From an uncultured Spirochaetota bacterium (GTDB lineage Bacteria > Spirochaetota > Brevinematia > Brevinematales > JAOACQ01), in contig CAWIGG010000002.1 of assembly GCA_963835575.1 (NCBI GenBank), positions 192,001 to 256,000 of the forward strand: a stretch of 64,000 bases of DNA, in the 5' to 3' direction. The position numbers were made by a program, and so were the translations under genes. The notes beneath the pieces were generated by a model, which made no database searches, was not told the origin of the DNA, and was given only the letters and a program-made list of their open reading frames with translations. Below are positions 1,020-51,351 of this stretch, piece by piece; within the stretch, counting starts at the first letter, position 1, and the number at the start of each line of letters is the position of its first letter.

Positions 1020-3677
1020 ATGAAGAAAATCTTCGGTTTAAAGAGATTAATCGCTCTTTTGACCATTGTAACGGCGGGCATTGTTCTGTCTTTACTGATC
1101 GTTTCATGCTCGACGACGTTAAGTTCTGGCGGTAATAATGGTTTTACAAGCCAGAATACAGAAACAAAGGCTGGAGGCTATAACTACGGCGAAGCCATCC
1201 AGAAAGCCATTATGTTCTACGAGTTTCAGCGCTCCGGAAAAATTGCCGCGGCTGATACAAACGGCCGTATGAACTGGCGCGGAAGTAGCGATATCAATGA
1301 CGGCTCTGATAACGGCATTGACCTGACCGGAGGCTGGCATGACGCGGGAGACCATGTCAAGTTTAACCTGCCCATGGCTTATTCGATATCCATGCTCTCC
1401 TGGGCTATTTATGAATACGGTGCGGCCCTTCAGTCCAGCGGCCAGTACGGCTACCTGACAAACAACATCAAGTGGGCTACGGATTATCTATTGAAATGCA
1501 GCGCCGGGTCCTCATATTATTATCAGGTCGGCAGCGGCGGCAATGATCATTCATGGTGGGGCCCCTGCGAAGTAAACCCGACCGTCAGGCCTTCCTACGC
1601 TGTAACCAGCGGCGGTTCGGCTGTAGCCGGTGAAACCGCGGCAGCTTTAGCCGCTGCAGCATGGGTTTTCCAGAACGGCGGTAATACTTCCTATGCTTCC
1701 ACGCTTCTCAGCACCGCCGAATCCCTTTATACCAAAGCCGCTTCCTGGGCCAGCGATTCCGCTTACAACAGCGGAGCGGCCAGCGGTTTTTACACATCTT
1801 CCAGCTGGGCCGACGACCTTTCCTGGGCAGCCATCTGGATCTATCTGGCCGGCGGCGGCAGCAGCTATCTGACAGCCGCGCAATCATGGACCAACCAATG
1901 GCCTGTCGTTACCGGATCATCCACATGGGATTACAGATGGACACAGTGCTGGGATGACGTTCACTACGGCGCTGAACTTATGCTGGCTAAATTAACAGGC
2001 CTTGACGTTTACAGGACCGCTATCGAACAGAGCCTGCAGTTCTGGACAACCGGTTATAACGGATTAAAAGTTACCTATACACCGGGCGGACTGGCATGGC
2101 TTTCAGAATGGGGTTGTCTGCGGTATGCCGTGAGCGAATCGTTTCTCGCATTTGTTTACACCGATTGGACAAACGCCGCGACGAGTAATCTGAGCGCTTA
2201 CAAGAGCTTTGCGGAAAACCAGGTTAACTATGTTCTGGGATCCACGGGAAAAAGCTATGAAATCGGTTTCGGAAGCAGTTATCCCCAGCATCCTCATCAC
2301 AGGACTGCTGAAAGCTCCTGGGCCAATGATATGAACACGCCGTCTTACGCAAGGCATACGATTTACGGAGCGCTTGTCGGCGGTCCGGACGCAAGCGATA
2401 ATTTTACAGATGCAGTCGGTTCGTATCAATACACAGAACCGGCCTGCGATTATAACGCGGGTTTTATCGCCTCACTTTCCAGAATGTACAAAGTTTACGG
2501 CGGTACGCCGATTGCGAACTTTACAAGCGCCATAGAAGTTCCTTCCAATACCGAGTTTTTCGTGTCGACGCAGCCTAACAGCACCGGCGCCAACTATTTT
2601 GAGGTGGCTGCCTGGCTGAACAACATGTCCGGCTGGCCGGCAAGACCGGGTACGAATCTTTCGTTCCGGTATTTTATCAATACTTCTGAATTTGCGGCAA
2701 ACGGCTACAGCGATACCAATGTTGCCATCACAGTCAATTACAACCAGGGCAACGCAACGGTATCGCCCAATCTGGTAGCATGGGACGCCGCAAATCATAT
2801 CTACTATGTCAATGTAAGTTTCAACAATACGAATATCTATCCCGGCGGACAGGGCATTTACCAGATGCAGATCCAGTTCAGGGTAGCGGGTCCGCAGAAC
2901 ACCAGCTTCTGGAGCAACCAGAACAACTGGTCCTATCAGGGCGGCATGACTACCAACAGTCCCAACCAGAATGTGCCTGTGTATATGTCCGGTGTTAAGA
3001 TATACGGTAATGAACCCGGAACATCCACTTCATCTTCTTCTGTTGCATCTTCAGTTGCAGTAAGTTCAAGCCTGGCCGCATCCAGCGTAGCGTCTTCTGT
3101 TGCGGTCAGTTCGAGCAGATCGAGTGTTGCGTCTTCGACAGCAGTAAGTTCAAGCCTGGCCGCATCCAGCGTAGCGTCTTCTGTTGCAGTTAGTTCGAGC
3201 AGATCGAGCGTAGCATCTTCAGTTGCGGTAAGCTCCAGCCGGTCGAGCGTAGCTTCTTCAGCAGCAGTCAGCTCGAGCCGGGCTGCATCCAGTGTTGCAG
3301 CTTCTAGCGTGGCTTCCAGCGTCGCAGTGTCCAGTGCGGCTTCAAGTACAGCCGGCGGATATGCTGTGAATTATACAGTCAATAATGACTGGGGTGCGGG
3401 CGCTACATGCACGGTGACCATAAAGAACAATTCCGCTACAGCCCTCAGTAGCTGGTCTCTTGTCTGGACTTTTGCAGGCAACCAGGCTATAACCCAGATA
3501 TGGAGCGCCAGTCAGACTACCAGCGGTGAAACAGTGACAGCCGTGAATTTAAGCTACAACGGTACGATCGGCGCGAATGGCGGAACGCAGAGCTTCGGCT
3601 TCAATTTGAGCTACAGCGGGTCCAATGCAAAACCGACTTCGTTCACTCTGAACGGAACGGCATGTACAACATATTAA
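1020..3677 (+). CDS. Lipoprotein GH9 endoglucanase (GH9-CBM3c-Ser/Ala linker-CBM2)
   Basis: Lipobox LIVSC; GGWHDAGDHVKF, PHHRTA and TEPACDYNAG motifs; CBM3c-like NMSGWPAR..LSFRYF..YG.EP; C-terminal CBM2 (NDWGAG..QIWS..SFGF..LNGTAC); GAGGAGG RBS. Confidence 0.93.
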   Translation: MKKIFGLKRLIALLTIVTAGIVLSLLIVSCSTTLSSGGNNGFTSQNTETKAGGYNYGEAIQKAIMFYEFQRSGKIAAADTNGRMNWRGSSDINDGSDNGIDLTGGWHDAGDHVKFNLPMAYSISMLSWAIYEYGAALQSSGQYGYLTNNIKWATDYLLKCSAGSSYYYQVGSGGNDHSWWGPCEVNPTVRPSYAVTSGGSAVAGETAAALAAAAWVFQNGGNTSYASTLLSTAESLYTKAASWASDSAYNSGAASGFYTSSSWADDLSWAAIWIYLAGGGSSYLTAAQSWTNQWPVVTGSSTWDYRWTQCWDDVHYGAELMLAKLTGLDVYRTAIEQSLQFWTTGYNGLKVTYTPGGLAWLSEWGCLRYAVSESFLAFVYTDWTNAATSNLSAYKSFAENQVNYVLGSTGKSYEIGFGSSYPQHPHHRTAESSWANDMNTPSYARHTIYGALVGGPDASDNFTDAVGSYQYTEPACDYNAGFIASLSRMYKVYGGTPIANFTSAIEVPSNTEFFVSTQPNSTGANYFEVAAWLNNMSGWPARPGTNLSFRYFINTSEFAANGYSDTNVAITVNYNQGNATVSPNLVAWDAANHIYYVNVSFNNTNIYPGGQGIYQMQIQFRVAGPQNTSFWSNQNNWSYQGGMTTNSPNQNVPVYMSGVKIYGNEPGTSTSSSSVASSVAVSSSLAASSVASSVAVSSSRSSVASSTAVSSSLAASSVASSVAVSSSRSSVASSVAVSSSRSSVASSAAVSSSRAASSVAASSVASSVAVSSAASSTAGGYAVNYTVNNDWGAGATCTVTIKNNSATALSSWSLVWTFAGNQAITQIWSASQTTSGETVTAVNLSYNGTIGANGGTQSFGFNLSYSGSNAKPTSFTLNGTACTTY

Positions 3678-4070: not shown

Positions 4071-6737
4071 ATGAAGAAAATCTTCGGTTTAAAGAGGTTA
4101 ATCGCTCTTTTGACCATTGTAACAGCGGGTATTGTTCTCGCAGCTTTTATCGTATCCTGTTCGCTGGTTTCCCATGAGAATTCCGGCCAGGGCTTCGATT
4201 CGAACCCTAATACTATGAAATCCGCGACGACATCAGGCGGCGGATATAACTACGGCGAAGCCATCCAGAAAGCCATTATGTTCTACGAGTTTCAGCGTTC
4301 AGGCAAGATCAACTCCGCTGATACTAACGGCCGTATGAACTGGCGCGGAGACAGCGATCTTAATGACGGCTCCGACAACGGTATAGACCTGACCGGCGGC
4401 TGGCATGACGCCGGCGATAATGTCAAGTTCAACCTGCCCATGTCCTACTCCGTATCCATGCTCTCCTGGGCCATCTACGAATACGGGGCCGCGATTCAAT
4501 CAAGCGGCCAGTACGGCTATCTGACGAACAATATCAAGTGGGCGACCGATTATCTATTGAAATGCAGCGCCGGGTCCTCATATTATTACCAGGTCGGCAG
4601 CGGCGCCAACGACCATTCATGGTGGGGACCTTGCGAAGTTAACCCAACGGTAAGGCCTTCATACTCATTGAGTAGCGGCGGTTCGGCAGTGGCCGGTGAA
4701 ACCGCGGCCGCTTTAGCCGCCGCAGCATGGGTTTTCCAGAACGGCGGAAATACTTCTTATGCTTCCACTCTGCTCACGCGCGCTGAATCCTTATATGCTT
4801 CAGCCGCTTCCTGGGCAAGCGATTCCGCATATAACTCCGGCGCCGCAAACGGTTATTATGGTTCCTCATGCTGGGCCGACGACCTTTCCTGGGCCGCAAT
4901 CTGGATCTACATTGCGGGCGGCGGAAGTTCTTACCTGACAGCCGCACAAACATGGACTAACCAATGGCCTGTCGTTACCGGATCATCCACATGGGATTAC
5001 AGGTGGACACAGTGCTGGGATGACGTTCACTACGGCGCTGAACTTATGCTGGCTAAATTAACAGGCCTTGACGTTTATAGGACCGCTATCGAACAGAGCC
5101 TGCAGTTCTGGACAACCGGTTATAACGGATTAAAAGTTACCTATACACCGGGCGGACTGGCATGGCTTTCACAATGGGGCTGTCTGCGGTATGCCATGAG
5201 CGAAGCGTTTCTCGCATTTGTCTACTGCGATTGGACAAACGCCGCAACGAGCAATCTGAGCGCTTACAAGAGCTTTGCTGAATCCCAGGTCAACTATGTT
5301 CTGGGCGCCACGGGCAGGAGCTTTGAAATCGGTTTCGGAACAAATTATCCCCTGCATCCGCACCACAGGACCGCGCAGGGTTCCTGGGCCGGCGATATGA
5401 ACATCCCGTCCTACTCAAGACATGTCCTTTACGGAGCGCTTAGCGGTGGTCCCGACTCAAGCGATGCTTTTACAGATGCTGTCGGTTCATATCAATGCAC
5501 CGAACCTGCCTGCGATTACAACGCGGGTTTTATCGCCTCACTTTCCAGAATGTACAAAGTTTACGGCGGTACGCCGATTGCGAACTTTACAAGCGCCATA
5601 GAAGTTCCTTCCAATACCGAGATTTTTGCATCCTCAATGTCGTACTATATGGGAACCGGCACTTATCAGGTAGTGGCGTTTATGAATAATATGTCGGGCT
5701 GGCCGGCAAGACCGGGCACCAATCTCTCTTTCAGGTGGTTTATCAATACATCATCGCTTGTCTCAGCCGGTTATTCCGATACGAATGTCACCGTACAGGT
5801 GAACGGAGGTGCGGGAAAGGTATCGCCGAATTTGATTGCATGGAACGCGGCCAGTCATATTTACTATGTTAATGTCGACTTCAGCGGCACAAACATCTGT
5901 CCTGCCGGGAATAATGTTTATCAGCTTCAGGCCAGCTTCCAGCTGAACGGCCCTTCAGGATCTACAGCATATAATTACAGCAATGACTGGTCTTACCTGG
6001 GAGGTATGACTACCAACAGTCCCAACCAGAATGTGCCTGTGTATATGTCCGGTGTTAAGATATACGGTAATGAACCCGGAACATCCACTTCATCTTCTTC
6101 TGTTGCATCTTCAGTTGCAGTAAGTTCAAGCCTGGCCGCATCCAGCGTAGCGTCTTCTGTTGCGGTCAGTTCGAGCAGATCGAGTGTTGCGTCTTCGACA
6201 GCAGTAAGTTCAAGCCTGGCCGCATCCAGCGTAGCGTCTTCTGTTGCAGTTAGTTCGAGCAGATCGAGCGTAGCATCTTCAGTTGCGGTAAGCTCCAGCC
6301 GGTCGAGCGTAGCTTCTTCAGCAGCAGTCAGCTCGAGCCGGGCTGCATCCAGTGTTGCAGCTTCTAGCGTGGCTTCCAGCGTCGCAGTGTCCAGTGCGGC
6401 TTCAAGTACAGCCGGCGGATATGCTGTGAATTATACAGTCAATAATGACTGGGGTGCGGGCGCTACATGCACGGTGACCATAAAGAACAATTCCGCTACA
6501 GCCCTCAGTAGCTGGTCTCTTGTCTGGACTTTTGCAGGCAACCAGGCTATAACCCAGATATGGAGCGCCAGTCAGACTACCAGCGGTGAAACAGTGACAG
6601 CCGTGAATTTAAGCTACAACGGTACGATCGGCGCGAATGGCGGAACGCAGAGCTTCGGCTTCAATTTGAGCTACAGCGGGTCCAATGCAAAACCGACTTC
6701 GTTCACTCTGAACGGAACGGCATGTACAACATATTAA
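4071..6737 (+). CDS. Lipoprotein GH9 endoglucanase (GH9-CBM3c-linker-CBM2), close paralog of 1020..3677
   Basis: Lipobox FIVSC; DAGDNVKF, PHHRTA, TEPACDYNAG; linker and CBM2 identical to the previous gene. Confidence 0.93.
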   Translation: MKKIFGLKRLIALLTIVTAGIVLAAFIVSCSLVSHENSGQGFDSNPNTMKSATTSGGGYNYGEAIQKAIMFYEFQRSGKINSADTNGRMNWRGDSDLNDGSDNGIDLTGGWHDAGDNVKFNLPMSYSVSMLSWAIYEYGAAIQSSGQYGYLTNNIKWATDYLLKCSAGSSYYYQVGSGANDHSWWGPCEVNPTVRPSYSLSSGGSAVAGETAAALAAAAWVFQNGGNTSYASTLLTRAESLYASAASWASDSAYNSGAANGYYGSSCWADDLSWAAIWIYIAGGGSSYLTAAQTWTNQWPVVTGSSTWDYRWTQCWDDVHYGAELMLAKLTGLDVYRTAIEQSLQFWTTGYNGLKVTYTPGGLAWLSQWGCLRYAMSEAFLAFVYCDWTNAATSNLSAYKSFAESQVNYVLGATGRSFEIGFGTNYPLHPHHRTAQGSWAGDMNIPSYSRHVLYGALSGGPDSSDAFTDAVGSYQCTEPACDYNAGFIASLSRMYKVYGGTPIANFTSAIEVPSNTEIFASSMSYYMGTGTYQVVAFMNNMSGWPARPGTNLSFRWFINTSSLVSAGYSDTNVTVQVNGGAGKVSPNLIAWNAASHIYYVNVDFSGTNICPAGNNVYQLQASFQLNGPSGSTAYNYSNDWSYLGGMTTNSPNQNVPVYMSGVKIYGNEPGTSTSSSSVASSVAVSSSLAASSVASSVAVSSSRSSVASSTAVSSSLAASSVASSVAVSSSRSSVASSVAVSSSRSSVASSAAVSSSRAASSVAASSVASSVAVSSAASSTAGGYAVNYTVNNDWGAGATCTVTIKNNSATALSSWSLVWTFAGNQAITQIWSASQTTSGETVTAVNLSYNGTIGANGGTQSFGFNLSYSGSNAKPTSFTLNGTACTTY

Positions 6738-7263: not shown

Positions 7264-9783
7264 ATGAAGAAAATCTTTGGTTTAAAGAGAATAATCGCTC
7301 TTTTAACCTTGATGACGGCGGGCATCGTTATTTCTTTGTTTATCGCTTCATGCTCTACGTCGATTAATTCTGGCGGTAATAATGGTTTTACAGACCAGAA
7401 TTCTCAAACTAAGGCAGGAGGCTATAACTACGGTGAAGCCCTCCAGAAGGCCATTATGTTCTACGAGTTCCAGAGGTCTGGAACAATCCCTTCAGATCAG
7501 AGAGACAACTGGAGAGGGAACTCCGGTATGAGCGACGCAGTCCTCGGCGGTTACTATGACGCCGGCGACCATGTCAAATTCAACCTTCCCATGGCCTTTT
7601 CAGCCAGTATGATGGCCTGGTCTCTCTATGAAAACGCTTCGGCTTATACGGCCACTGGTCAGACCGCTTATATTCAGAAAGCGATCCAGTGGGTTTGCGA
7701 CTACCTTGTCGGATGCCAGAGCGGAAACATCTATCAGATCGGCGACGGCAGTCTGGACCATGCCTGGTGGGGTCCCTGCGAAGTCATGCAGATGTCAAGA
7801 CCTGCGGCATCATCGGCTCAATGTTCTGCCGTATGGGGAGAAAGCGCCGCCGCTCTTGCCGCCGCTTCCAAAGTGCTCGGCAATTCTTCCTACCTGTCGG
7901 CTGCGAAGACCTATTTCAGCAAGGCTGAAAGTGCTATGAGCGATTCCGGTTATACCGCCGCTAACGGTTATTACAATTCCTGGAGCGGTTTCTATGATGA
8001 ACTGGTCTGGGCGGCAGTATGGCTCTATATTGCCTCCGGTGACAGCACATATTTAACGAAAGCTCAAACCTATTTTGGAAATATCGGGATGGAAGGACAG
8101 TCTTCCAACGTTGCTTACAAATGGACACAATCTTGGGACGACAAGCATTACGGCGCAGAGCTTTTGCTTGCCAAGTTAACAGGCGGCGCCCAATATAAAA
8201 CAGCCATTGAAAACAACCTGGACTACTGGACCACAGGCGGTCCTGACGGCTCCAAGATTACTTATACTCCCAAGGGTCTGGCCCATCTGGATAACTGGGG
8301 ATGTATCAGGTACGCTATGGGCGCTTCAACTCTAGCTTTTTGCTATGCCAACTGGTCCGGCGCGAATGCCACAAAAGCCGCCACTTACAAGTCTTTTGCT
8401 GAAACGCAGGTCAATTATGCTCTCGGCAGCACAGGCAGAAGCTATATAATCGGTTTCGGAAGCAATTATCCCCAGCATCCGCACCACAGAACGGCTGAAA
8501 GCTCATGGGCAGACAGCCAGACAGTACCGCCCTATTGCCGTCATACACTTATCGGCGCATTGGTCGGCGGTCCTGACGCAAGCGACAATTTTACCGACGA
8601 TGACAGCCAGTATCAATACACTGAACCGGCCTGCGACTATAACGCATGCTTGATCGGCGCACTGGCATATATGTATAATTCCTACGGCGGTACACCGGTA
8701 GCCAACTTGACGGCTAATGAAACTCCTTCCAACCTGGAATATTTTGTTCAGACTGCGCAAAATGCCACAGGAAATAACTTCTTTGAAGTCAAGTTTGATT
8801 TGTTCAACGAGTCAGGGTGGCCGGCAAGGGCGCTTTCAAACTCTGTGTCATTCCGCTACTTTTTTGATATTTCCGAACTTGTTGCAAAAGGGCATACCGC
8901 TAGTGATATTACCCTTACCGTCAATTACAATCAGGACAGCGCGGGTGTAGCCACACTGAAGCAGTGGAGCGGGAATATCTATTATATCAATGTCAACTGG
9001 ACCGGATTGATCTATCCCGGCGGACAGTCGATGTACAAGAAAGAAATTCAGGTCAGGTTTACTTATCCGACAGACGTGACAAACGATAACTCCAATGACT
9101 GGTCCTACCAGTATTTTAACAATGTAGTTACAACCGGAACAACAAATAACCCCAATGTGCCTGTATACATCAATGGGACGAAAGTTTATGGTAATGAACC
9201 CGGCGCAGCTTCTTCTTCAGCTGCTTCATCTGTAGCCGCGAGTTCACGTCCAGCATCCTCAGTAGCAGCATCCTCAATAGCAGCAAGCTCAGTGGCAGCA
9301 TCTTCATCATTGGCCGCATCATCCATAGCTGCTAGTTCACGGTCGAGCGTAGCATCCTCAGTAGCAGTCAGCTCGAGCCGGTCCAGTGTTGCGTCTTCAG
9401 TAGCAGTTTCCAGCGTTGCATCTTCAGTTGCTGTTTCCAGCGCAGCTTCTTCAGTCAGCGGCGGATATGCGGTTAATTACACCGTCAATAATGACTGGGG
9501 CGCGGGCGCTACATGCACGGTGACCATTAAGAACAATTCCGCTACAGCCCTCAGCAGCTGGTCTCTTGTCTGGACTTTTGCAGGCAACCAGGCGATCACG
9601 CAGATCTGGAGCGCAACGCAGACTTCCAGCGGTGAAACGGTGACTGTCAATAACCTGAGCTACAATAATGTCATCGGCGCGAACGGCGGAACGCAGAGCT
9701 TCGGCTTCAATTTGAGCTACAGCGGATCCAATGCAAAACCGACTTCGTTCACTTTGAACGGAACGGCATGTACACTTTACTAA
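7264..9783 (+). CDS. Lipoprotein GH9 endoglucanase (GH9-CBM3c-linker-CBM2)
   Basis: Lipobox FIASC; GGYYDAGDHVKF, PHHRTA, TEPACDYNA; NESGWPAR..YPGGQS..KKEIQ CBM3c; CBM2. Confidence 0.93.
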   Translation: MKKIFGLKRIIALLTLMTAGIVISLFIASCSTSINSGGNNGFTDQNSQTKAGGYNYGEALQKAIMFYEFQRSGTIPSDQRDNWRGNSGMSDAVLGGYYDAGDHVKFNLPMAFSASMMAWSLYENASAYTATGQTAYIQKAIQWVCDYLVGCQSGNIYQIGDGSLDHAWWGPCEVMQMSRPAASSAQCSAVWGESAAALAAASKVLGNSSYLSAAKTYFSKAESAMSDSGYTAANGYYNSWSGFYDELVWAAVWLYIASGDSTYLTKAQTYFGNIGMEGQSSNVAYKWTQSWDDKHYGAELLLAKLTGGAQYKTAIENNLDYWTTGGPDGSKITYTPKGLAHLDNWGCIRYAMGASTLAFCYANWSGANATKAATYKSFAETQVNYALGSTGRSYIIGFGSNYPQHPHHRTAESSWADSQTVPPYCRHTLIGALVGGPDASDNFTDDDSQYQYTEPACDYNACLIGALAYMYNSYGGTPVANLTANETPSNLEYFVQTAQNATGNNFFEVKFDLFNESGWPARALSNSVSFRYFFDISELVAKGHTASDITLTVNYNQDSAGVATLKQWSGNIYYINVNWTGLIYPGGQSMYKKEIQVRFTYPTDVTNDNSNDWSYQYFNNVVTTGTTNNPNVPVYINGTKVYGNEPGAASSSAASSVAASSRPASSVAASSIAASSVAASSSLAASSIAASSRSSVASSVAVSSSRSSVASSVAVSSVASSVAVSSAASSVSGGYAVNYTVNNDWGAGATCTVTIKNNSATALSSWSLVWTFAGNQAITQIWSATQTSSGETVTVNNLSYNNVIGANGGTQSFGFNLSYSGSNAKPTSFTLNGTACTLY

Positions 9784-9894: not shown

Positions 9895-11736
9895 ATGATA
9901 AAGAGAAACAAAGTGAAACTAATTTTATTAGGTTTAGGTGCAATGTTTTTTGTTCTCCAGTTTTCTACCTGCTCATTACAGTCTAATCAGGAAACTGGAC
10001 AGCAAAACAATACGACGGCTGTCAATACACAGAAAGCCACGGTTTCCAGCGTCGGGCGTCTGACAGGCGTCAACTGGTTCGGATTTGAAACCGGAAACTT
10101 CTGTCCCCATGGTCTCTGGTCCAGAGACTATAAATCCATGTTGAAGCAGATCAAAGACCTCGGTTTTAACTGTATTCGTATGCCCTGGTGCAACGATATG
10201 CTGTCGGCAACTCCCAACAGCATACAGATCAACGCTTCAGGCGTGGACGCGTACACAGGTCAGACCGGCCTGAACATGGACCTGGCCGGACTTTCTTCAA
10301 TCCAGGTAATGGACAAGGTAATCGATGAGGCAACCAGGGTCGACGGTATAAAGATCATCCTGGACAACCATTCAAAGACACATGACAACTATAATAATGA
10401 AACATTATGGTACACATCATCCTGTTCGGAAAGCCAGGGTATTTCGGATTGGCTTACTCTAATCAACCGTTATAAGAATAACGCGTATGTTTGCGGGGCC
10501 GATCTGAAGAACAAGCCTCATGGCAATATGACTACAGGTATGAGACCGCCTGCGACCTGGGGTTATGATGAACCCGGTCAGGGAACGACAGACTGGAAAG
10601 CGGCCGCCGAAAGGATCGGTACCGCCATCCTTAACGCCAATCCCAATATGATCATCATCGTGGAAGGCGTGGAATGCTATTACAATTATCCTACGGATAC
10701 TGTTACCAACTTCTTCTGGTGGGGCGGCGAATTATCAGGTGTTGCAGACCATCCTATCACTGCTATTCCTTCTGCCCAGCTGATGTATTCTGTTCATGAG
10801 TACGGTCCCGAAGTCTATAATCAGTCCTGGTTCCAGGATTCCACATTCCCGAACAATATGCCTGCCATCTGGGACAAACATTACTATTTTATTAAAAAGA
10901 ATGGCATAGGCTCTCTGTTCTTCGGTGAATTCGGCATAACGGAATCCGCAGTAGAAGCCGGCGGAGTGGCAGCCACATGGTATAAGAACTTTATGGCATA
11001 TATCGGAACCGCCAACAGCTGGACATTCTGGTGCATCAACCCGGATTCCGGCGACACCGGCGGTATATTACAGAACAACTGGGTTACTGTAGAGCCGTCT
11101 AAATACGCGGTTTTGAAACCCTATCTGGCCGCTCAATTCTCGCCTCTCGGCGGAGCAAGTTCATCTTCATCCTCTACTGTATCTTCAGTTGCTGCGAGTT
11201 CGAGCCGGGCAGCATCCTCAGTGGCAGTCAGTTCGAGCAGATCGAGCGCAGCTTCTTCAGTCGCTGCAAGCTCCAGCCGGGCCGCATCCAGCGTTGCTTC
11301 ATCTATAGCCGCTAGTTCACGGTCCAGTGTTGCTTCTTCTGCAGCGGTTAGTTCGAGCCGGTCGAGCGCCGCATCCAGCGCCGCGGCTTCCAGTACTGCC
11401 GCTTCATCAGGCGGCGGATATGCTGTTAATTATACGGTTAATAATGACTGGGGCGCAGGCGCCACATGCACGGTGACCGTTAAGAACAACAGCGCTACGG
11501 CTGTAAATGGATGGTCCTTAGTATGGACTTACGCTGGCAATCAGACGCTGACGCAGATTTGGAACGCCACATATACCGCAAGCGGAGAGACCATTACCGT
11601 CACAAACGCAAGCTTTAACAATGTCATAAGCGTAAACGGCGGGACGCAGAGCTTCGGCTTCAATCTGAGCTACAGCGGGTCCAATGCAAAACCGGCTTCG
11701 TTCACTTTGAACGGAACGGCTTGCACAACATACTAA
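9895..11736 (+). CDS. Lipoprotein GH5 (subfamily 1-like) endoglucanase-CBM2 with catalytic acid/base Glu replaced by Lys
   Basis: GVNWFGFET, HEYGP, FGEFG and WCINPDSGDTGG motifs. DLKNKPH stands where paralogs 35644 and 37514 have DLKNEPH. Confidence 0.88.
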   Translation: MIKRNKVKLILLGLGAMFFVLQFSTCSLQSNQETGQQNNTTAVNTQKATVSSVGRLTGVNWFGFETGNFCPHGLWSRDYKSMLKQIKDLGFNCIRMPWCNDMLSATPNSIQINASGVDAYTGQTGLNMDLAGLSSIQVMDKVIDEATRVDGIKIILDNHSKTHDNYNNETLWYTSSCSESQGISDWLTLINRYKNNAYVCGADLKNKPHGNMTTGMRPPATWGYDEPGQGTTDWKAAAERIGTAILNANPNMIIIVEGVECYYNYPTDTVTNFFWWGGELSGVADHPITAIPSAQLMYSVHEYGPEVYNQSWFQDSTFPNNMPAIWDKHYYFIKKNGIGSLFFGEFGITESAVEAGGVAATWYKNFMAYIGTANSWTFWCINPDSGDTGGILQNNWVTVEPSKYAVLKPYLAAQFSPLGGASSSSSSTVSSVAASSSRAASSVAVSSSRSSAASSVAASSSRAASSVASSIAASSRSSVASSAAVSSSRSSAASSAAASSTAASSGGGYAVNYTVNNDWGAGATCTVTVKNNSATAVNGWSLVWTYAGNQTLTQIWNATYTASGETITVTNASFNNVISVNGGTQSFGFNLSYSGSNAKPASFTLNGTACTTY

Positions 11737-13990: not shown

Positions 13991-14104
13991 AAAATGTTGA
14001 GAGCGGCCCTGATATTTAGGAATGAATAAGATAGTTAAAAATCCTCCCTCATTTATTTGAGGGAGGAACGCTTTTATCTTAAGAAAATTTTTGAGGAGAG
14101 TTTT

Positions 14105-35460: not shown

Positions 35461-35620
35461 TAAGTGAAATTTCCGGAAATATTTCCGGTTTTTTATGATG
35501 GGATAGAAGAATATTTATAATGAGAAAAAGTTAATAATAGATAAGTCATTCAGCCCTGTCCGGGCCGGTGCCGCATCCCCCCCCGACCGCGGTATTCGGT
35601 TCCGGACCGGGCGAAAATGA
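35461..35620 (+). repeat. Diverged third copy of the intergenic unit 3675-3830, including the long stem-loop
   Basis: TAAGTGAAATTTCCGGAAAT..GTCATTCAGCCCTGTCCGG..GCGGTATTCGGTTCCG..GGGCGA; TATAAT at ~35516. Confidence 0.75.
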
Positions 35621-35643
35621 CGGATAAAAAATGGAGGAACATT

Positions 35644-39355: not shown

Positions 39356-39394
39356 AATCCGTTTCAAAATAAATTGATAAGGAGGAAAATTTTT

Positions 39395-41710: not shown

Positions 41711-43636
41711 ATGAATCACTTGAAGGTTAAAGCGATTTTACTGTTCGGAAGCATACTGTGCTTTTTATGGTCATGCTCCGTAAACCCTATGAGTGAGAAA
41801 GGCCAGTCATTGTCTTTCACTGGGGTGAAAGCGACGGCGAACGGAAAGTTTTTGGGAAATATCTGGGGAGGCAATACCGAACCTCTGAACTTCAGCAAGT
41901 ATTGGAACCAGGTGACGCCTGAAAACGCAGGAAAATGGGGATCAGTGGAATTGTCCCAGGGCACTTACAACTGGAGTGATCTGGATGCGCAGTACAGTTA
42001 TGCCAAATCCAAAGGCTTCCCGTTTAAGTTTCATAATCTGGTATGGGGAAGCCAGCAGCCGAGCTGGATCAGTTCATTATCTGCCACAAACCAGGTGCTG
42101 GCTGTAATTGATTGGATCTCGAATGTCGGCGCAAGATACTCAAACCTTGATTTTATCGACGTGGTCAACGAACCGATTAAAACCGGCCAGCCTCCCTATG
42201 GGGCGGCCATCGGCGGCAGCGGTTCGACGGGATGGGACTGGGTCATTTTTGCATTTACGGTGGCACGGAAATATTGCGGCAATGCAAAACTGCTTGTTAA
42301 TGAATACAGTGTGGAAAATGATACCTCTGCAGCAGCGCAATACACCAATATTATCAATTTGCTGAAAAGCCGTAATCTGATAGATGGAGTGGGGATCCAG
42401 GGCCATTATTTCAGTTTGGACAGTGATGATACCGGTACTTTATCAAACTGTCTGTCAATTATATTGTCCACAGGCCTTCCGATTTACATTTCTGAGCTTG
42501 ACCTTGACGGAGATGATGCGACTCAGCTTTCCAGATACCAAAAATATTTTCCGATCCTCTGGAATTACTCAACGATTAAAGGCGTCACACTCTGGGGATA
42601 CATCCAGGGTTCAATCTGGACAACAAACGCTTATCTCTTAACCACTTCCGGGACGGAACGCCCGGCATTGACCTGGCTGATGCAGTATGTCGGCAATACT
42701 ACCTCGACCAGTTCCAGCAGCCCGGTTGCGTCTTCCAGCAGCGCGGCTTCGTCCGTACCTGTAAGCTCCAGCCGGTCGTCCGCGGCGAGCAGTATTGCTT
42801 CTTCAGTTGCTGTCAGCTCCAGCCAGGCGAGCAGTATAGCCAGTTCCGCTTCATCCTCAGTCCAGTATCAGAATATTACTCTTCCGTTCAGCTTTGACGG
42901 CACGGGAGAATTATACTGGCAGACAAGCGGTACGATCACCAGCATGAATTCCTGGAATCTTGATGCGCTGGATGTGAATGGGACAAGCTTTAAAAATGTG
43001 TATGTCGCCGGAAGCAGCCTGCCCGCGAAACAGAATGGATACTACTACATTCACTATAAGGGGTCATATTCCTATAGTCATGTTGAAATTGCCGGCACAT
43101 CAGGATCGGTGAGCAGCAGTTCGATAGCTGTCAGTTCCAGCCCGGCAAGCAGTGTCGCCTCTTCAATAGCGGCAAGCTCCAGCCGTGCAGCCTCTTCAAT
43201 AGCAGCTAGCTCTAGCAGATCGAGTATTGCATCTTCAGTAGCAGTCAGCTCAAGCCTGGCCGCATCCAGTGTCGCTTCCAGTGCGGCATCGAGCACGGCT
43301 TCCAGCACAAGCGGCGGGTATGCAGTGAATTATACCGTCAATAATGACTGGGGCGCGGGCGCCACAGTCACGGTAACCATAAAGAACAATTCCGCAACGG
43401 CCCTTTCGAGCTGGTCTCTTGTCTGGACATTTGCGGGCAATCAGCAGATCACTCAGATCTGGAGCGCCACGCAGACAACCAGCGGCGCGACCGTTACTGT
43501 GAATAGTTTAACTTATAACGGCGCGATCGGCGCGAACGGCGGAACGCAGAGTTTCGGCTTCAATCTGAGCTACAGCGGCTCGAACGCCAAGCCGGCAGCA
43601 TTTACTTTGAATGGGACGGCATGCTCGACTTATTGA
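41711..43636 (+). CDS. Lipoprotein GH10 endo-xylanase with CBM64-like module and CBM2
   Basis: WNQVTPENAGKWG, FHNLVWGSQQP, DVVNEP, GIQGH, IYISELD and GVTLWG motifs; lipobox FLWSC. Confidence 0.92.
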   Translation: MNHLKVKAILLFGSILCFLWSCSVNPMSEKGQSLSFTGVKATANGKFLGNIWGGNTEPLNFSKYWNQVTPENAGKWGSVELSQGTYNWSDLDAQYSYAKSKGFPFKFHNLVWGSQQPSWISSLSATNQVLAVIDWISNVGARYSNLDFIDVVNEPIKTGQPPYGAAIGGSGSTGWDWVIFAFTVARKYCGNAKLLVNEYSVENDTSAAAQYTNIINLLKSRNLIDGVGIQGHYFSLDSDDTGTLSNCLSIILSTGLPIYISELDLDGDDATQLSRYQKYFPILWNYSTIKGVTLWGYIQGSIWTTNAYLLTTSGTERPALTWLMQYVGNTTSTSSSSPVASSSSAASSVPVSSSRSSAASSIASSVAVSSSQASSIASSASSSVQYQNITLPFSFDGTGELYWQTSGTITSMNSWNLDALDVNGTSFKNVYVAGSSLPAKQNGYYYIHYKGSYSYSHVEIAGTSGSVSSSSIAVSSSPASSVASSIAASSSRAASSIAASSSRSSIASSVAVSSSLAASSVASSAASSTASSTSGGYAVNYTVNNDWGAGATVTVTIKNNSATALSSWSLVWTFAGNQQITQIWSATQTTSGATVTVNSLTYNGAIGANGGTQSFGFNLSYSGSNAKPAAFTLNGTACSTY

Positions 43637-43874: not shown

Positions 43875-45985
43875 ATGAAGCTATTGAAGATGAAAGTTTT
43901 ATTACTGTCCGGAAGCATGCTGTGCTTTTTATGGTCATGCTCGTAAGCCCTTTGAGTGAGAAAAGTCAGTCATTGTCTTTCACCGCGGTGAAAGCGACGG
44001 CGAGCGGAAAGTTTCTGGGTAATATCTGGGGAGGCAGTTCCGAGCCCCTCAATTTCAGTACATACTGGAACCAGGTGACTCCTGAAAACGCCGGGAAATG
44101 GGGTTCCGTGGAATCCAGCCAGGGAACCTATAACTGGAGCGCATTGGACGCGCAATACAGTTATGCTAAATCCAGAGGATATCCTTTTAAATTCCATAAT
44201 CTGATCTGGGGCAGCCAGCAGCCTGCCTGGATCAGCACTTTGTCGGCCGCGAACCAGGTGCTGGCGGTCATCGATTGGATTTCGAATGTCGGCGCGAGAT
44301 ACAGCAATTTAGACTTCATAGATGTGGTCAATGAACCTCTGCATTCGCCGCCCTCCTATTCGAATGCGATGGGCGGAAGCGGCTCCACCGGCTGGGACTG
44401 GATTGTTTTTGCATTTCAACAGGCGCGGAAGTATTGCGGGAATGCAAAACTGCTTATCAATGAGTATGGCGTGGAGGGCAACACCACGGCCATGGCAAAC
44501 TACACGAATATCATCAGTATTCTTAAGGCTTCGAATTTGATAGATGGAGTGGGAGTCCAGGGGCATGATTTCAGTCTTGACGGCTGTTCACTAAGCACGC
44601 TGTCGAACTGCTTGTCTATGATTGCGGCCACAGGATTGCCGATCTATATTTCGGAGCTTGATCTTTCATCTACTGATGACACTGTCCAGCTTGGTCTTTA
44701 TCAGAAGTATTTCCCGGCATTGTGGGAAAATCCGGATGTCATGGGTGTTACTTTGTGGGGTTATATTCAAGGCTCAATATGGACTTCCAATGCTTTTCTT
44801 CTCTACACAAACGGCACGGAACGCCCTGCTCTGACATGGCTGACGAATTATGTGAGAGGCGGGGCTTCTTCTGCAGGCGGATCCATCCAGGTTTTTTTCT
44901 ACAACGGAAATACCAGTACATCAGTAAACAGCCTTTCCCTTAATTTTCTTATATCCAATACGGGACTCTCCATCATCAATTTAACCAATGTGACTCTCCG
45001 CTATTACTACACCATTGACAGCGCAACGAATCAGATCTTCAACTGTAATTACTCGACTTTAGGCAACAGCAGTGTGACCGGAAGTTTTGTAACGATGCCG
45101 AATCCCGGGCCGACTGCAGACAGATATGTTCAGATCGGCTTTACGAGTGCGGCCGGAAGCCTGTATGCCGGGAATAGCGCTGTGGTTCAAGTTGCGGTAA
45201 ATAAAAGTGACTGGTCCAGTTATATACAAACAAATGATTATTCATTTAATTCCTCGGCCGCAACATATACGTCCTGGTCAAAAGTGACCGGGTATATCTC
45301 AGGCACGCTTGCATTTGGCACAGAGCCGTCTTCCGGCAGTTCCTCATCCATCTCAAGTGTGAGTTCCAGTCTATCCAGTTCATTAAGCAGTTCCGTTATT
45401 TCCTCGAGCAGCAGCCGTTCCGCCGCATCATCTTCGGTCAGCTCCAGCCTGAGCTCGAGTAAATCGTCGAGCAGTGTGTCCAGTCCTGCTTCGAGCAGCA
45501 GCCGTTCCAGCGTTGCATCCAGCATTTCCTCATCAGTAGCAGTGAGTTCCAGCCTTTCCAGCGTTGCGTCATCGGCAGCGGTGAGCTCGAGCCTGGCAGC
45601 ATCCAGTGTTGCTTCAAGCGTTGCTTCCAGTGCAGCATCGAGCGCGGCATCCAGCACAAGCGGCGGGTATGCAGTTAATTATACAGTCAATAATGACTGG
45701 GGCGCAGGGGCTACGTGCACGGTGACCATAAAGAACAACAGCGCCGCAGCCGTAAACGGATGGACATTAGTCTGGACATTTGCGGGTAATCAGACTCTCA
45801 CACAGATTTGGAACGCAACTGACACCCAGAGCGGAGCAACTGTTACCGTTAAGAACGCGAGCTTTAATAATATCATCGGAGCGAGCGGCGGGACCCAGAG
45901 CTTCGGATTTAATTTGAGTTACAGCGGTTCGAATGTTAAACCCGCGGCATTTACTTTAAACGGTACGGCATGCACACTTTACTGA
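43875..45985 (+). pseudogene. GH10 xylanase-CBM3-linker-CBM2 with a one-base deletion just after the lipobox (or a sequencing error)
   Basis: AGGAG RBS and ATG 43875 give MKLLKMKVLLLSGSMLCFLWSCS* (TAA 43944-43946). The paralog reads TGC TCC GTA where this copy reads TGC TC GTA. ORF 43922..45985 holds intact GH10 and CBM3 (LRYYYT, NDYSF) modules. Confidence 0.83.
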
Positions 45986-46535: not shown

Positions 46536-49238
46536 ATGAGAAAAGTATTTCCAAGAAAGCAATTTTGGCTTACTTTGATGTTTTTTGCTGTCGGTATTTC
46601 TCTAGCAGTAATCGTATCTTGTTCCCTTTCAACTTTTGGAGGCGGTCCTAATGCGGATTACTCTAAAGTCAATCATGCGCCGAGCTATCCGGGTGTGGCA
46701 ACACGGGCGGCTCCTATGGTCATTGATACCAATGTCTCGGTTGATGCTTCAACTGTTGTCAGGACCATGCCGGACGATTTGTTCGGGAACAACATTGCGG
46801 CCTGGGAAGGGAGTACGGATGGGAAGGACGCCTTTTTGAATGACTTCATGAAGATAAGCGGCATGAAACTGATCCGTTATCCCGGCGGTTCATGGGCAGA
46901 TATCGTGGCCTGGGACACGGTCGGAGTGCCTTCAAGCAATTCATGGGAGCTGGACAATAATGAGTCAATAGCTTTTGCGAAAGCAGCCGGAGCCAATCTC
47001 CAGGCGATCGTCAACTTCAGCGGATACTGGGACGGCGTTCAGCATACACCGGCCGATGCGGTGGCTAAAGCGTCCAACTGGGTCGCCTATATGAAGAACA
47101 CCGCCGCTTTTCCAATTAAATACTGGGAAATCGGCAATGAATCATACGGCAGCTGGGAACAGGGCTACACAAATGGAGCCGCCTATGGCAGCCGTTTTGC
47201 CGATTTTTATAAGGCAATGAAAGCCATTGATTCCACGATCCAGATCGGGGCCGTTTCCACGCCTTACGATAACGGCGACAGCTATACAGGATATTACTGG
47301 TGGATGAGGGATATGTTATCCAATTCAATAGCAAAAGGAGTGATTCCGGATTACCTGATTATCCATACCTATCCGATGGACGAAGCCATGTCGGCCGATG
47401 CCGACGCAAGGCTGTTACAGGCGCCCTGGACGATATCTCAATTGACGGCTAACCTGGACCAGATCGTGGCCAATTATGCCGGATCAAGCTATGTTGGAAA
47501 GATTCCATATAGAATGACGGAATACCGTTCCGTTTTGAACAGCCGCGGCCAGACGATCACTTTCCTGGACGCAATGTTCACGGCACAGTACATCATGGAA
47601 ATGGCGAAACACGGCTGGGCCGGGGCCAATTTGTGGAATATCAGGAACGGTATGAGTACCAGTTATAATGGAGATTACGGCATATTTCAAAAAACCAGTT
47701 CAGGAACTGTTATTGACGACTATTACACAACTTATCTTGTGTTCCCGTTCCTGAGCAGTAAATTCGGGCGCAGCATGGTCAATGCGTCGGTCACAAGCAA
47801 TTCCTATATCAATGCCTATGCTGCCAAGGATGCATCCGGTAATCTGACCATATTGCTGATCAATAATTCTCCGGATACAGACCTTACGGCCCAGGTGAAC
47901 ATTACCGGTTTTACCGCCGCGACAAACGGGTTGGAATGGGTGCTGGCTCCGGCCGGTATGACGGCGAGCGGCGCCACAACACCAATACAGGAATGCACGA
48001 ATATTTCCTATAACGGTGTGGTCCACCCGAGCGCTCAAACTGCTTATTACACGAGCGGCATACCGATAAAAACAGGGACGAATTTTCCGGTTCCAGTGAA
48101 AAAAAGCACGATGGTTCTGGTTAATGTTCCCAGTACGGCCAATGCCAGCAGTTCATCATCCGTTTCTTCCATGTCTTTCGCTTCTTCCAGCAGCCGTCCG
48201 AGTGATATTGTGCAAACTATTCCCGGAAAAGTTATTGGGGATTATTATACGAATATGAACGGCATTCAAGTTGAATCCTGCGGCGATTCAAACGGCGTTG
48301 GAGACGGATACGATATCGGTTATATAGATTATGGAGATTGGTGCGATTACAACGTTAATGTCCAGAGTACGGCAAATTATAATGTGGAATTCAGGATCGC
48401 AGGCGCAACACCGGCTGGATGTATCCAGATTTATACGAATGGACAATGGATCATGCAGACGATATCTACTCTACCGGCAACAACTGGATATCAGGACTGG
48501 ACTTCCTATAATACAAATTTCACACTGACTGCCGGGCGTTATGTACTGCGGGTCTTTTTCAACGGGAACGGCTTTAACTTCGAATATGCCAATTTCACGA
48601 TACCGGGCGGTTCTTCATCGAGTTCCAGCGCAGCATCTTCGGTACCGGCAAGCTCCAGCCGTTCGAGTGTTGCGTCCAGTGTGGCTTCGAGTATTGCATC
48701 GTCAACCGCAGTGAGTTCAAGCCGTGCCGCGTCCAGCGTCGCTTCTTCAGTTGCCGTCAGTTCGAGCCGGTCGAGCGCTGCATCCTCAGCGGCAGTAAGC
48801 TCCAGCAGATCGAGCGCTGCGTCTTCTGTGGCTGTGAGTTCGAGCCGGGCCGCATCAAGTGCAGTTTCCAGTGCTGCGGTTTCCAGTGCGGCTTCCAGCA
48901 CAGCCGCTTCATCTGGCGGTTACGCCGTGAATTATACTGTTAATAATGACTGGGGCGCAGGCGCCACTTGCACGGTGACCATTAAAAACAATAGCGCGGC
49001 AGCCCTCAGCAGCTGGTCTCTTGTCTGGACCTTTGCAGGCAACCAGGCTATAACCCAGATATGGAGCGCCAGTCAGACTACCAGCGGTGAAACGGTGACA
49101 GCCGTCAATCTCAGTTACAACGGTGCGATAGGAGCGAACGGCGGAACACAGAGTTTCGGCTTTAATCTCTCATACAGCGGGTCCAATGCCAAACCAACAG
49201 CATTCACTTTAAACGGAACTGCATGTTCAATTTATTAA
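46536..49238 (+). CDS. Lipoprotein clan GH-A hydrolase (GH51-like) with CBM6-like module and CBM2
   Basis: LIRYPGGSWAD, KYWEIGNESYGSWE and RMTEY motifs; CBM6-like IGYIDYGDWCDYNVNV..TTGYQDW; lipobox VIVSC. Exact family uncertain. Confidence 0.72.
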   Translation: MRKVFPRKQFWLTLMFFAVGISLAVIVSCSLSTFGGGPNADYSKVNHAPSYPGVATRAAPMVIDTNVSVDASTVVRTMPDDLFGNNIAAWEGSTDGKDAFLNDFMKISGMKLIRYPGGSWADIVAWDTVGVPSSNSWELDNNESIAFAKAAGANLQAIVNFSGYWDGVQHTPADAVAKASNWVAYMKNTAAFPIKYWEIGNESYGSWEQGYTNGAAYGSRFADFYKAMKAIDSTIQIGAVSTPYDNGDSYTGYYWWMRDMLSNSIAKGVIPDYLIIHTYPMDEAMSADADARLLQAPWTISQLTANLDQIVANYAGSSYVGKIPYRMTEYRSVLNSRGQTITFLDAMFTAQYIMEMAKHGWAGANLWNIRNGMSTSYNGDYGIFQKTSSGTVIDDYYTTYLVFPFLSSKFGRSMVNASVTSNSYINAYAAKDASGNLTILLINNSPDTDLTAQVNITGFTAATNGLEWVLAPAGMTASGATTPIQECTNISYNGVVHPSAQTAYYTSGIPIKTGTNFPVPVKKSTMVLVNVPSTANASSSSSVSSMSFASSSSRPSDIVQTIPGKVIGDYYTNMNGIQVESCGDSNGVGDGYDIGYIDYGDWCDYNVNVQSTANYNVEFRIAGATPAGCIQIYTNGQWIMQTISTLPATTGYQDWTSYNTNFTLTAGRYVLRVFFNGNGFNFEYANFTIPGGSSSSSSAASSVPASSSRSSVASSVASSIASSTAVSSSRAASSVASSVAVSSSRSSAASSAAVSSSRSSAASSVAVSSSRAASSAVSSAAVSSAASSTAASSGGYAVNYTVNNDWGAGATCTVTIKNNSAAALSSWSLVWTFAGNQAITQIWSASQTTSGETVTAVNLSYNGAIGANGGTQSFGFNLSYSGSNAKPTAFTLNGTACSIY

Positions 49239-49560: not shown

Positions 49561-51351
49561 ATGAGGAAAATCTTAGTAAGGTTTCTGCTTCTTGCTCTAA
49601 CTCTTGCGGCCGCATTGTGTGTTGTGTCATGCGCGTTATCAATCCCGGACGGATCGAATCAGGGTGAAAAATCCCAGCCTTTGGGTTCGGGCTTGAGGGC
49701 CGCTCCGGTAGGCAGCGGCGCGTATCCTTACGGAACTGTTCTCGGGAATGACAATCAAATGCTTGTCAACAGCTACAGCACCTGGAAATCGAAATACGTC
49801 ACTTCTTCCGGGGCGTCGGGTTATCTGAGGGTCCAGCGCCCGGAAAATAACAATGATACTGTTTCGGAGGGCATCGGCTACGGCATGCTTATTGCCGTTT
49901 ATATGAATGACCAGGCGACATTCAACTCTCTGTGGAGCTATGCCCAGAAGTATCTGGACGCCGACGGCCTGATGAACTGGCAGATTGACAGTTCCGGGAA
50001 CGTTATCGGACAGAACGGGGCCACGGACGCCGATGAGGATATGACTCTGGCACTGGTTGCCGCCGATAAATTATGGGGCGGCTATACTTCTCAGGCCACG
50101 GGCATGATCCAGAAAATTTATAATAACGAGGTCGAAAGCGGCACCTACTGCATAAAGCCGGGTGATGTCTGGGGCGGATCGGCATGTATGAACCCATCGT
50201 ATTTTGCCACAGCGGAATACCGGGTTTTCGCACAGTATTCCGGCAATACAGGCTGGACTTCCGCGGCATCGGAATGCTATACGGTTTTAAACGCTAATAA
50301 AAACGCCACTACCGGTCTGGTGATGGACTGGTGCCAGGCTAACGGTACCCCTTCTTCCCAGCAGCCCGGTGGAACCAATTATCTCTATGATGCTTGCCGC
50401 GTTCCGATGAGAATATCTCTGGATTATCTGTGGTTCGGGACTTCAAGCGCACAGACTTTCCTGAATACAATGATCGGCTGGTTTGCCAATATCGGCGCAG
50501 CAAATATTAAGTCCAGTTATACTGTAACCGGGACCCCGCTTGTGACTTACCAGGATTGCGCCTTTTTAGGGCCCATCGCTGCCGGTTCATGCTCGGCATC
50601 AGTCAGTTCAACTTTCAGGTCTGATATTTTTACCGATTTGACCAACAGGGGCGTTAATAACAATTACTATAATGATTCTCTGGCAATGATCTGCATGCTG
50701 ATCACAACCGGACACTTCCCGAATCCTCTAACTTTGAGCGGGAACTCTTCATCTTCCGCAGCTGCCAGTTCGAGCCGTTCCAGCGCCGCCTCTTCAGCAG
50801 CTGTGAGCTCCAGTGCAAGCGTAGCTTCTTCTGCCGCTGTGAGTTCGAGCCGGTCGAGCGTCGCTTCTTCAGTTGCCGTCAGTTCGAGCCGGTCGAGCGC
50901 TGCATCCTCAGCGGCAGTAAGCTCTAGCAGATCGAGCGCTGCGTCTTCTGTGGCTGTGAGTTCGAGCCGGGCCGCATCAAGTGCAGCTTCCAGCGCCGCA
51001 GTGTCCAGTGCGGCTTCAAGTACAGCCGGCGGATATGCTGTGAATTATACAGTCAATAATGATTGGGGCGCAGGCGCTACATGCACGGTAACCATAAAGA
51101 ACAATAGCGCCGCGGCTGTAAACGGATGGACCTTAGTATGGACTTACACGGGTAATCAGACTCTCACACAGATATGGAACGCTGCATATACTGCAAGCGG
51201 AGAGACCATTACCGTCACAAACGCAAGCTTTAACAATGTTATCAGTGCTAACGGCGGGACTCAGAGCTTCGGCTTCAATTTGAGCTATAGCGGATCCAAT
51301 GCCAAACCAACGGCGTTTACGCTGAACGGGACGGCATGTACAACGTACTAA
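49561..51351 (+). CDS. Lipoprotein GH8 endoglucanase-CBM2
   Basis: DTVSEGIGYGM, ATDADED, NPSYF, YDACRVP and YYNDSL are GH8 motifs; lipobox CVVSC. Confidence 0.92.
   Translation: MRKILVRFLLLALTLAAALCVVSCALSIPDGSNQGEKSQPLGSGLRAAPVGSGAYPYGTVLGNDNQMLVNSYSTWKSKYVTSSGASGYLRVQRPENNNDTVSEGIGYGMLIAVYMNDQATFNSLWSYAQKYLDADGLMNWQIDSSGNVIGQNGATDADEDMTLALVAADKLWGGYTSQATGMIQKIYNNEVESGTYCIKPGDVWGGSACMNPSYFATAEYRVFAQYSGNTGWTSAASECYTVLNANKNATTGLVMDWCQANGTPSSQQPGGTNYLYDACRVPMRISLDYLWFGTSSAQTFLNTMIGWFANIGAANIKSSYTVTGTPLVTYQDCAFLGPIAAGSCSASVSSTFRSDIFTDLTNRGVNNNYYNDSLAMICMLITTGHFPNPLTLSGNSSSSAAASSSRSSAASSAAVSSSASVASSAAVSSSRSSVASSVAVSSSRSSAASSAAVSSSRSSAASSVAVSSSRAASSAASSAAVSSAASSTAGGYAVNYTVNNDWGAGATCTVTIKNNSAAAVNGWTLVWTYTGNQTLTQIWNAAYTASGETITVTNASFNNVISANGGTQSFGFNLSYSGSNAKPTAFTLNGTACTTY

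Follow-up and report, generated by a model that had tools for sequence, protein, structure and literature searches.

We analyzed a 64,000-nucleotide stretch of DNA (hereafter the window; G000:C2:192001-256000) that is internal to a 2.05-Mb contig in the genome of an uncultured, probable spirochaete (G000; 4.39 Mb, 94% complete). The window carries an array of 19 co-directional open reading frames (ORFs) on the + strand, within positions 1020-51351, that encode predicted cellulases and hemicellulases. Each product contains one catalytic module, followed by a Ser/Ala linker and a C-terminal carbohydrate-binding module of family 2 (CBM2), as found for 19 of 19 proteins using the ORF list and Pfam. 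In agreement with a preliminary description of this DNA, seven catalytic glycoside hydrolase (GH) families are represented: GH9 (six genes), GH5 (seven), GH10 (two), and GH8, GH12, GH116 and a GH51-like module (one each). The genes, named here g1 to g19, are as follows, all on the + strand, with Pfam as the evidence unless other evidence is given.

1020..3677, +: g1, lipobox-GH9-CBM3-linker-CBM2
4071..6737, +: g2, lipobox-GH9-(CBM3-like, no Pfam match)-linker-CBM2; tail DNA identical to that of g1 (Pfam, alignment)
7264..9783, +: g3, lipobox-GH9-CBM3-linker-CBM2
9895..11736, +: g4, lipobox-GH5 (endoglucanase type)-linker-CBM2; NKP for catalytic NEP (Pfam, relatives)
12170..13990, +: g5, lipobox-GH5 (mannanase type)-linker-CBM2; NKP for NEP (matches to solved beta-mannanases)
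14057..16921, +: g6, lipobox-GH116-linker-CBM2
17035..18312, +: g7, lipobox-GH12-linker-CBM2
18564..21161, +: g8, lipobox-GH9-CBM3-linker-CBM2
21405..23966, +: g9, lipobox-GH9-CBM3-linker-CBM2
24015..25985, +: g10, lipobox-GH5-linker-CBM64-linker-CBM2
30695..33322, +: g11, lipobox-GH9-CBM3-linker-CBM2
33365..35296, +: g12, lipobox-GH5 (mannanase type)-linker-CBM2
35617..37428, +: g13, lipobox-GH5-linker-CBM2; 83% to g4, NEP intact (Pfam, alignment)
37514..39355, +: g14, lipobox-GH5-linker-CBM2; 58% identical to a GH5-CBM64 protein of relative G068 (Pfam, alignment)
39374..41488, +: g15, lipobox-GH5-like mannanase-linker-CBM64-linker-CBM2 (Pfam, matches to solved beta-mannanases)
41711..43636, +: g16, lipobox-GH10-linker-CBM64-linker-CBM2
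43875..45985, +: g17, lipobox-GH10-CBM3-linker-CBM2, with a frameshift directly after the Cys (Pfam, reading-frame inspection)
46536..49238, +: g18, lipobox-weakly GH51-like module-CBM6-linker-CBM2 (Pfam, PDB, NCBIfam)
49561..51351, +: g19, lipobox-GH8-linker-CBM2

Five of the seven GH5 modules were assigned by PF00150; for those at 12170 and 39374, the assignment comes from similarity to beta-mannanases of known structure. The module of g18 (46536) is only weakly GH51-like, with a PDB match at E 3e-6 across ~100 aa and an NCBIfam score of 34 bits against a cut-off of 625. Extra internal modules comprise CBM3 in five of the six GH9 proteins and in one GH10, CBM64 in three proteins and CBM6 in one. 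The array is split into 10 and 9 genes by a 4.7-kb insertion; within it, positions 26207-30500 hold a sensor kinase gene, a GGDEF ORF and the remnant of a group II intron.

The CBM2 tails all end in A-C-x-x-Y. The preliminary description called them near-identical, and similar is the better word: identity to the g1 tail is 78-90% for the seven other window tails aligned and 78-100% over all 19, with many synonymous differences. In the alignment, which used 20 of 21 rows (the row of the GH48 protein described below was dropped), the array tails appeared by eye as patchworks of common segments. Furthermore, six full CBM2-tail genes and one remnant lie outside the window. The six encode two GH9, a GH5, a GH27, a GH30-like xylanase and a GH48, and all but the GH48 have a lipobox-like Cys. 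Three more lipobox genes carry the same linker with CBM3 instead. On contig C3, a tandem pair shares identical DNA that starts at T-R-A codons, spans the catalytic module and extends halfway into the linker, yet the heads diverge and the tails are CBM2 and CBM3, respectively, so that one module boundary falls at the T-R-A codons. In the remnant (C2:328.3 kb), a lipobox head and the initial residues of a GH5 are fused to the last 20 residues of a tail. Together, the C3 pair, this remnant and the patchwork tails show module exchange, which bears out the module shuffling proposed earlier. The locus is also a natural record of how such enzymes are recombined; gene conversion among array genes may be inferred as well. 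At L081:5843-7606, a lipobox GH5 and a linker-CBM3 are parted by a stop, which reflects either a broken gene or an assembly error.

An array with so many repeats could be inflated by assembly error, or be decaying. Three of its genes look damaged. The GH5 genes g4 (9895) and g5 (12170) encode NKP where their relatives have the catalytic NEP, two Glu-to-Lys changes that may be real losses or base errors. In g17 (GH10, 43922), the signal and Cys are in another frame, starting from the ATG at 43875 and followed by a stop, and this frameshift may likewise be real or an assembly error. As a check of motif-specific base-calling errors behind the Glu-to-Lys changes, we counted GAACGA (19 against 28.7 expected) and found the same NEP codons intact in g13 and g16. 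The split GH5-CBM3, the collapsed remnant and a split receiver domain are also compatible with inflation or decay, as is a cluster look-up of six array proteins, all singletons from one assembly with no second copy. However, paralogues differ (g4 and g13, 83%), most copies of the 300-nt repeats are 60-89% alike with only a few at 95-100%, the array is internal to its contig, and an independent assembly contains the GT39 glycosyltransferase gene next to it in identical form. The presence of seven catalytic families and the synonymous differences between tails argue against a collapsed-repeat artefact, and we regard an inflated or decaying array as very unlikely.

The lipobox and the tether that follows it were read by eye from translated N-termini. 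In every one of the 19 heads, a Cys closes the hydrophobic stretch, and the residue at +2 is Ser in 16 of them. The claim that every gene has a lipobox Cys thus stands for the 18 genes where it is in frame, g17 being the exception. In contrast, the heads do not share a common sequence, as had been proposed, but only a common pattern. Counting the genes outside the window, 24 of the 25 CBM2-tail genes have a lipobox-like head (by eye), 19 of them in the array, and the signal Cys is also kept in genes of the relatives G001, G007, G011, G068 and G231. The genome encodes Lgt and LspA. It also encodes LpxC and LpxB, and an outer membrane is therefore indicated. The canonical lipobox is L-[AS]-[GA]-C, and most array lipoboxes deviate from it. 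This deviation, along with a type II secretion-like machine encoded elsewhere in the genome, would suit an ordinary free-enzyme or periplasmic cluster in which lipidation of the Cys does not take place or the proteins never leave the periplasm. We consider this improbable given the position of the Cys, the Ser at +2 and the retention of the Cys in five relatives; the signal of the GH48, by comparison, is a Cys-free A-S-A, and crystalline-cellulose CBMs would make little sense in the periplasm.

Regarding localization, lipobox-anchored carbohydrases are described in Saccharophagus (PMC2386152, PMC3124978), and Borrelia burgdorferi has been suggested to place lipoproteins on its surface by default (PMC11784454). 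On these two precedents, we infer that the array enzymes are displayed on the cell surface, and tethering of the cell to cellulose through the enzymes themselves, as the preliminary description put forward, is plausible.

A second reading of the heads comes from their tethers. A Lys/Arg-Ala motif is found 19-29 residues past the Cys, directly before the catalytic module, in 18 of the 19 array genes (by eye; g2 has KSA instead, and g17 was read past its frameshift). Although the tethers are otherwise divergent, seven of the eight outlying lipobox carbohydrate-active enzymes (CAZymes) share the motif, which was also observed in three of four G068 genes and two of three G231 genes. None of seven non-CAZyme lipobox ORFs has it, in a small control set drawn from two loci. 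This distribution suggests that the anchor may be cut: the lipid would be a transit handle, and a Lys/Arg-specific surface protease, for example a lipobox clostripain, would cleave at Lys/Arg-Ala and free GH-linker-CBM2 enzymes. The genome contains three clostripain-family (C11) genes, two of which encode lipobox proteins ~38-46 kb upstream, and the module boundary of the C3 pair falls at the motif. L104:1592-3235 encodes a cellulose-binding protease, a papain-family lipobox protein that also contains Fn3-like and CBM3 modules and has TRA directly before its protease domain. Type V pilins offer a precedent, since cleavage after Arg converts their lipoprotein precursors into the mature form (PMC13655056). 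On the other hand, none of two G001 genes and one of four G007-type genes carry the motif, though the one G011 gene read has it. Descent from a common head, or a function in sorting, could also explain it. Clostripain genes turn up in 8 of 11 relatives irrespective of CAZymes, and gingipain C25 gave no match in the genome, with a silent control. Given the motif distribution, the clostripain genes and the pilin precedent, shedding is a serious rival to permanent anchoring, possible though not the reading we favor, and a mixed outcome of tethering and release is also possible.

The two lipobox clostripains belong to a set of six co-directional lipobox genes (L103; G000:C2:145500-156500) that encode two clostripain-PPC proteases and four repetitive, beta-helix-like proteins with Ser/Gly tethers.

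Searches for scaffold components supported the scaffold-free organization proposed for the array. Neither dockerin (PF00404) nor cohesin (PF00963) was matched in the 94% complete genome, with controls positive in 2 of 14 cases for each, and SusD (PF07980) was likewise unmatched, with a positive control in B. thetaiotaomicron. No SusC TonB-dependent transporter was found among the 30 window ORFs scanned, the rest of the genome not being searched for it. The same 30 ORFs contain no cohesin, dockerin, GH48 or GH6, as the preliminary description reported. The absence of an exoglucanase does not extend beyond the window, as a GH48-CBM2 gene is located ~530 kb from the array. GH6 was not found in the genome, with a silent control.

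The GH48 gene has a full-length PF02011 match without stops and encodes a predicted exoglucanase with the same linker and tail as the array proteins and a signal peptidase I (SPase I)-type head ending in A-S-A. Among its best matches (53-56%) are two GH48-linker-CBM64 proteins (P0002, P0003) that also have no signal Cys, and a GH48 was found in none of the 11 family relatives. The gene is surrounded by genes for a secretin, T2SSE, T2SSF, T2SSG, a pseudopilin and a prepilin peptidase, for which NCBIfam fits both type II secretion and a type IV pilus.

Several promoters of the array share an operator-like repeat, and a candidate regulator gene ends just inside the window:

150..662, +: 3' end of an 835-aa LacI-type sugar-sensor/PAS/LuxR regulator (G000:C2:190155-192662), 3' of a CBM4_9 lipoprotein gene; candidate activator (Pfam)
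886..918, +: operator-like repeat with 23-bp period, 5' of g1 (upstream-region alignment)
3935-3967, 7133-7165, 18443-18475, 30580-30612 and 49360-49392, +: further operator pairs (upstream-region alignment)
46137-46167, +: looser operator copy (upstream-region alignment)

Alignment of 12 upstream regions revealed this repeat at six promoters, with a 23-bp period and a palindromic core, ~40 bases before a TATAAT-like box; the figure of 17 against 1.35 obtained at this stage is partly circular. A scan of the genome returned 17 matches against one with a reversed control; seven of the 17 are at the promoters used for derivation. Of the 10 matches elsewhere, eight precede CAZyme genes built on the same head-GH-linker-CBM plan and another lies 5' of a MATE gene next to the remnant, while the match at G000 C4:45795, like one in G001 (C11:70712), has no visible target. 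Looser copies were seen by eye 5' of the GH48 gene and of a gene pair in G001. In G007 and G010, the palindrome precedes an operon of a CBM4_9 lipoprotein gene and a sugar-sensor/LuxR gene, the latter 40-43% identical to the regulator upstream of the array. The sugar-sensor/LuxR protein encoded upstream of the array is the best candidate activator. The MATE transporter gene (L080:3018-1669; G000:C2:326665-328017) has its own operator copy and is therefore suggested to be a regulon member. A generic promoter scan added little.

On the opposite strand, the array is followed by two overlapping glycosyltransferase (GT) genes:

52091..53869, -: GT39 protein-O-mannosyltransferase (PMT)-like gene; candidate linker glycosylase (Pfam PMT, PMT_4TMC)
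53866..55443, -: GT87/ALG6-like membrane glycosyltransferase, overlapping the GT39 gene (Pfam)

The named nearest relatives of the adjacent GT39 are mostly from Bacillota and are named GT39. This copy occurs in 1 of 12 family genomes (G000 and none of its 11 relatives). A GT39 unique to this genome had been considered, a view narrowed by the finding that another PMT-like gene is present in all 12. In Caldicellulosiruptor bescii, a GT39 in the glucan degradation locus is needed to glycosylate secreted enzymes (PMC6151902). Adjacency and this precedent suggest that the GT39 here may act on the linkers. The family-wide PMT-like gene adjoins a lipobox GH5 that lacks a linker-CBM tail (L105:2372-5784).

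To place the array, we compared it with other genomes of the phylum. The host itself is probably a Brevinematales spirochaete, and its closest CBM64 relatives (59-74%) are from Brevinematales or Brevinematia bacteria. CBM2 was detected in 6 of 300 other phylum genomes, many of them covered in part, none with more than a single copy over the cut-off, and a search with the tail found 1 of 40 relatives. CBM64 was found in 11 of 400, in 8 of them over the cut-off. In G001, of the same genus, a homologous regulator is flanked by only two genes of this plan, which are convergent: a GH5-polySer-CBM2 (tail 56% identical) and a GH9-CBM3-polySer-CBM64. Lipobox-GH9-polySer-CBM64 genes are dispersed in the family members G007 and G011, and two CBM64-relative loci carry such genes as well (3 of 49 loci read). 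Finally, tandem lipobox-GH-Pro/Thr-CBM64 genes of GH9-CBM3, GH5 and GH12 types are present in G068 (four genes) and G231 (three genes). Because these two genomes carry tandem arrays with the same catalytic types, the organization is not new in kind, contrary to the preliminary description, and largely the same architecture exists in relatives. Some Chloroflexia and Anaerolineales records contain many CBM64 copies, one with ~18 loci, and a parallel tail expansion is possible there. A literature search returned no description of the array, of a Brevinematales cellulase system or of the tether motif; its scope excluded supplements and the subscription papers on Spirochaeta thermophila, which may cover lipoprotein signals and clustering.

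Clostridial cellulosomes combine a GH48 with many GH9-CBM3 and GH5 enzymes in presumed cell-bound synergy. The present system resembles them in having a GH48, many GH9-CBM3 and GH5, but has no dockerin or cohesin match, and each enzyme has its own CBM. In S. thermophila, seven GHs reportedly share a CBM64 module. The S. thermophila-type CBM64 system (G068, G124, G231; seven CBM64 copies per genome) is similar to the array in its tandem co-directional lipobox-GH-linker genes with one common C-terminal CBM, in its GH9-CBM3, GH5 and GH12 modules (same Pfam sets; g14 is 58% identical to a G068 GH5) and in its Arg-Ala tether ends. It differs in having three to four genes instead of 19, Pro/Thr instead of Ser/Ala linkers, CBM64 instead of CBM2 as terminal module (the three CBM64 of G000 are all internal), no GH48 in any of the three genomes (control silent) and no operator match in the G068 cluster. 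CBM64 originates from S. thermophila (PMC7867066).

Similarly, the glucan degradation locus of Caldicellulosiruptor unites modular GHs at a single site, with CBM DNA that is repeated, a GT39 at the locus and a GH48 in the system, and it is proposed to have grown by duplication and recombination (PMC7142884, PMC6151902). There, the proteins have two catalytic domains, CBM3 repeats and Pro/Thr linkers, the enzymes are secreted and the GH48 is inside the locus, whereas here we find one catalytic domain, CBM2, lipobox heads, an indicated outer membrane and a GH48 elsewhere. Saccharophagus degradans and Cellvibrio carbohydrases also have poly-serine linkers, CBM2 and lipobox-anchored enzymes (PMC2386152, PMC3124978). 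However, lipobox proteins there number 34, or 15% of the carbohydrate-active ORFs, and depolymerases frequently occur as free enzymes, in contrast to the predominance of lipobox-like heads among the CBM2-tail genes described here. The array is thus neither a cellulosome nor a polysaccharide utilization locus. By its terminal module it falls outside the strict CBM64 system and by its domain plan outside the Caldicellulosiruptor locus, and it combines features of both. It is a much enlarged form of a plan present in other spirochaetes, distinct in its scale, its standard CBM2 tail, its GH48 and its extra GT39.

On balance, we lean toward a co-regulated, surface-anchored and scaffold-free coat of cellulases and hemicellulases, complemented by a released GH48 exoglucanase. 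The enzymes would be made as prolipoproteins, lipidated and cut by Lgt and LspA, and transferred to the outer face of the outer membrane, where the lipid would hold them. The Ser/Ala linker, probably O-glycosylated by the adjacent GT39, would carry a CBM2 that grips cellulose, so that the membrane takes the role of a scaffoldin. The GH48 would probably exit through the type II secretion- or pilus-like machine encoded around it, and the common operator on the array and outlying genes would probably be bound by the neighboring sugar-sensor/LuxR protein. The array may have grown from the older spirochaetal lipobox-GH-linker-CBM64 plan by duplication and by module exchange via the repetitive linker, and CBM2 would have been adopted as the standard tail.

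Several observations weigh against parts of this coat model. In addition to the non-canonical lipoboxes, the possibly cleavable tether motif and the three damaged-looking genes, the same review that suggests default surface placement calls it unique to Borrelia (PMC11784454). The other PMT-like gene is present in all 12 family genomes, and therefore the adjacent GT39 need not serve the array; moreover, this GT39 scores 93 against a cut-off of 800 bits in the NCBIfam equivalog model, and deletion of a second C. bescii GT had little effect (PMC7142884). The locus around the GH48 could build a type IV pilus instead, and its ATPase was unmatched at E 1e-60 in the CBM64-bearing G001, G007, G010 and G011. 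Lastly, the operator was matched neither upstream of the regulator's own operon in G000 nor in the G068 cluster.

A broader and more doubtful proposal is that cellulolytic spirochaetes share an undescribed secretion logic, in which lipoprotein endoglucanases and hemicellulases would be kept, or shed at Lys/Arg-Ala by a surface clostripain-like protease, while GH48 would leave by type II secretion. The present genome would then be an extreme case: its membrane would stand in for the scaffoldin, an acquired GT39 would protect the linkers, and a single operator would control the whole set. The genome bears on the way in which crystalline cellulose is attacked by outer-membrane bacteria that lack cellulosomes, as it contains a complete predicted kit from an uncultured lineage of spirochaetes: a GH48, many GH9-CBM3, 25 CBM2 tails, a candidate glycosylase, an operator and a regulator. 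The choice between tethering and shedding can be addressed in cultured CBM64 spirochaetes, whose genes have the same heads.

Other features of the window and its surroundings include the genes that interrupt the array:

26207..29501, +: sensor histidine kinase and REC-GGDEF ORF, with the receiver domain split across two overlapping ORFs (Pfam)
29752..30500, +: group II intron remnant, truncated ORF (sequence comparison)

The sensor kinase is a membrane protein with an N-terminal extracellular domain, and it and its REC-GGDEF partner lie in low-GC DNA. A second group II intron remnant (L079:8330-9078) precedes a GH9-PA14-CBM2 gene ~9 kb beyond the window; both remnants have truncated ORFs and are located just 5' of a GH9 gene of the array type. 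Downstream of the GT39 gene, positions 51451-51975 encode a 174-aa secreted-looking protein with a Trp/Arg-rich stretch and a charged tail, without a Pfam or NCBIfam match. Finally, an Eco57I-type restriction-modification gene and an SMC/AAA ATPase gene in a low-GC stretch (57432-63848) possibly form a defence island.

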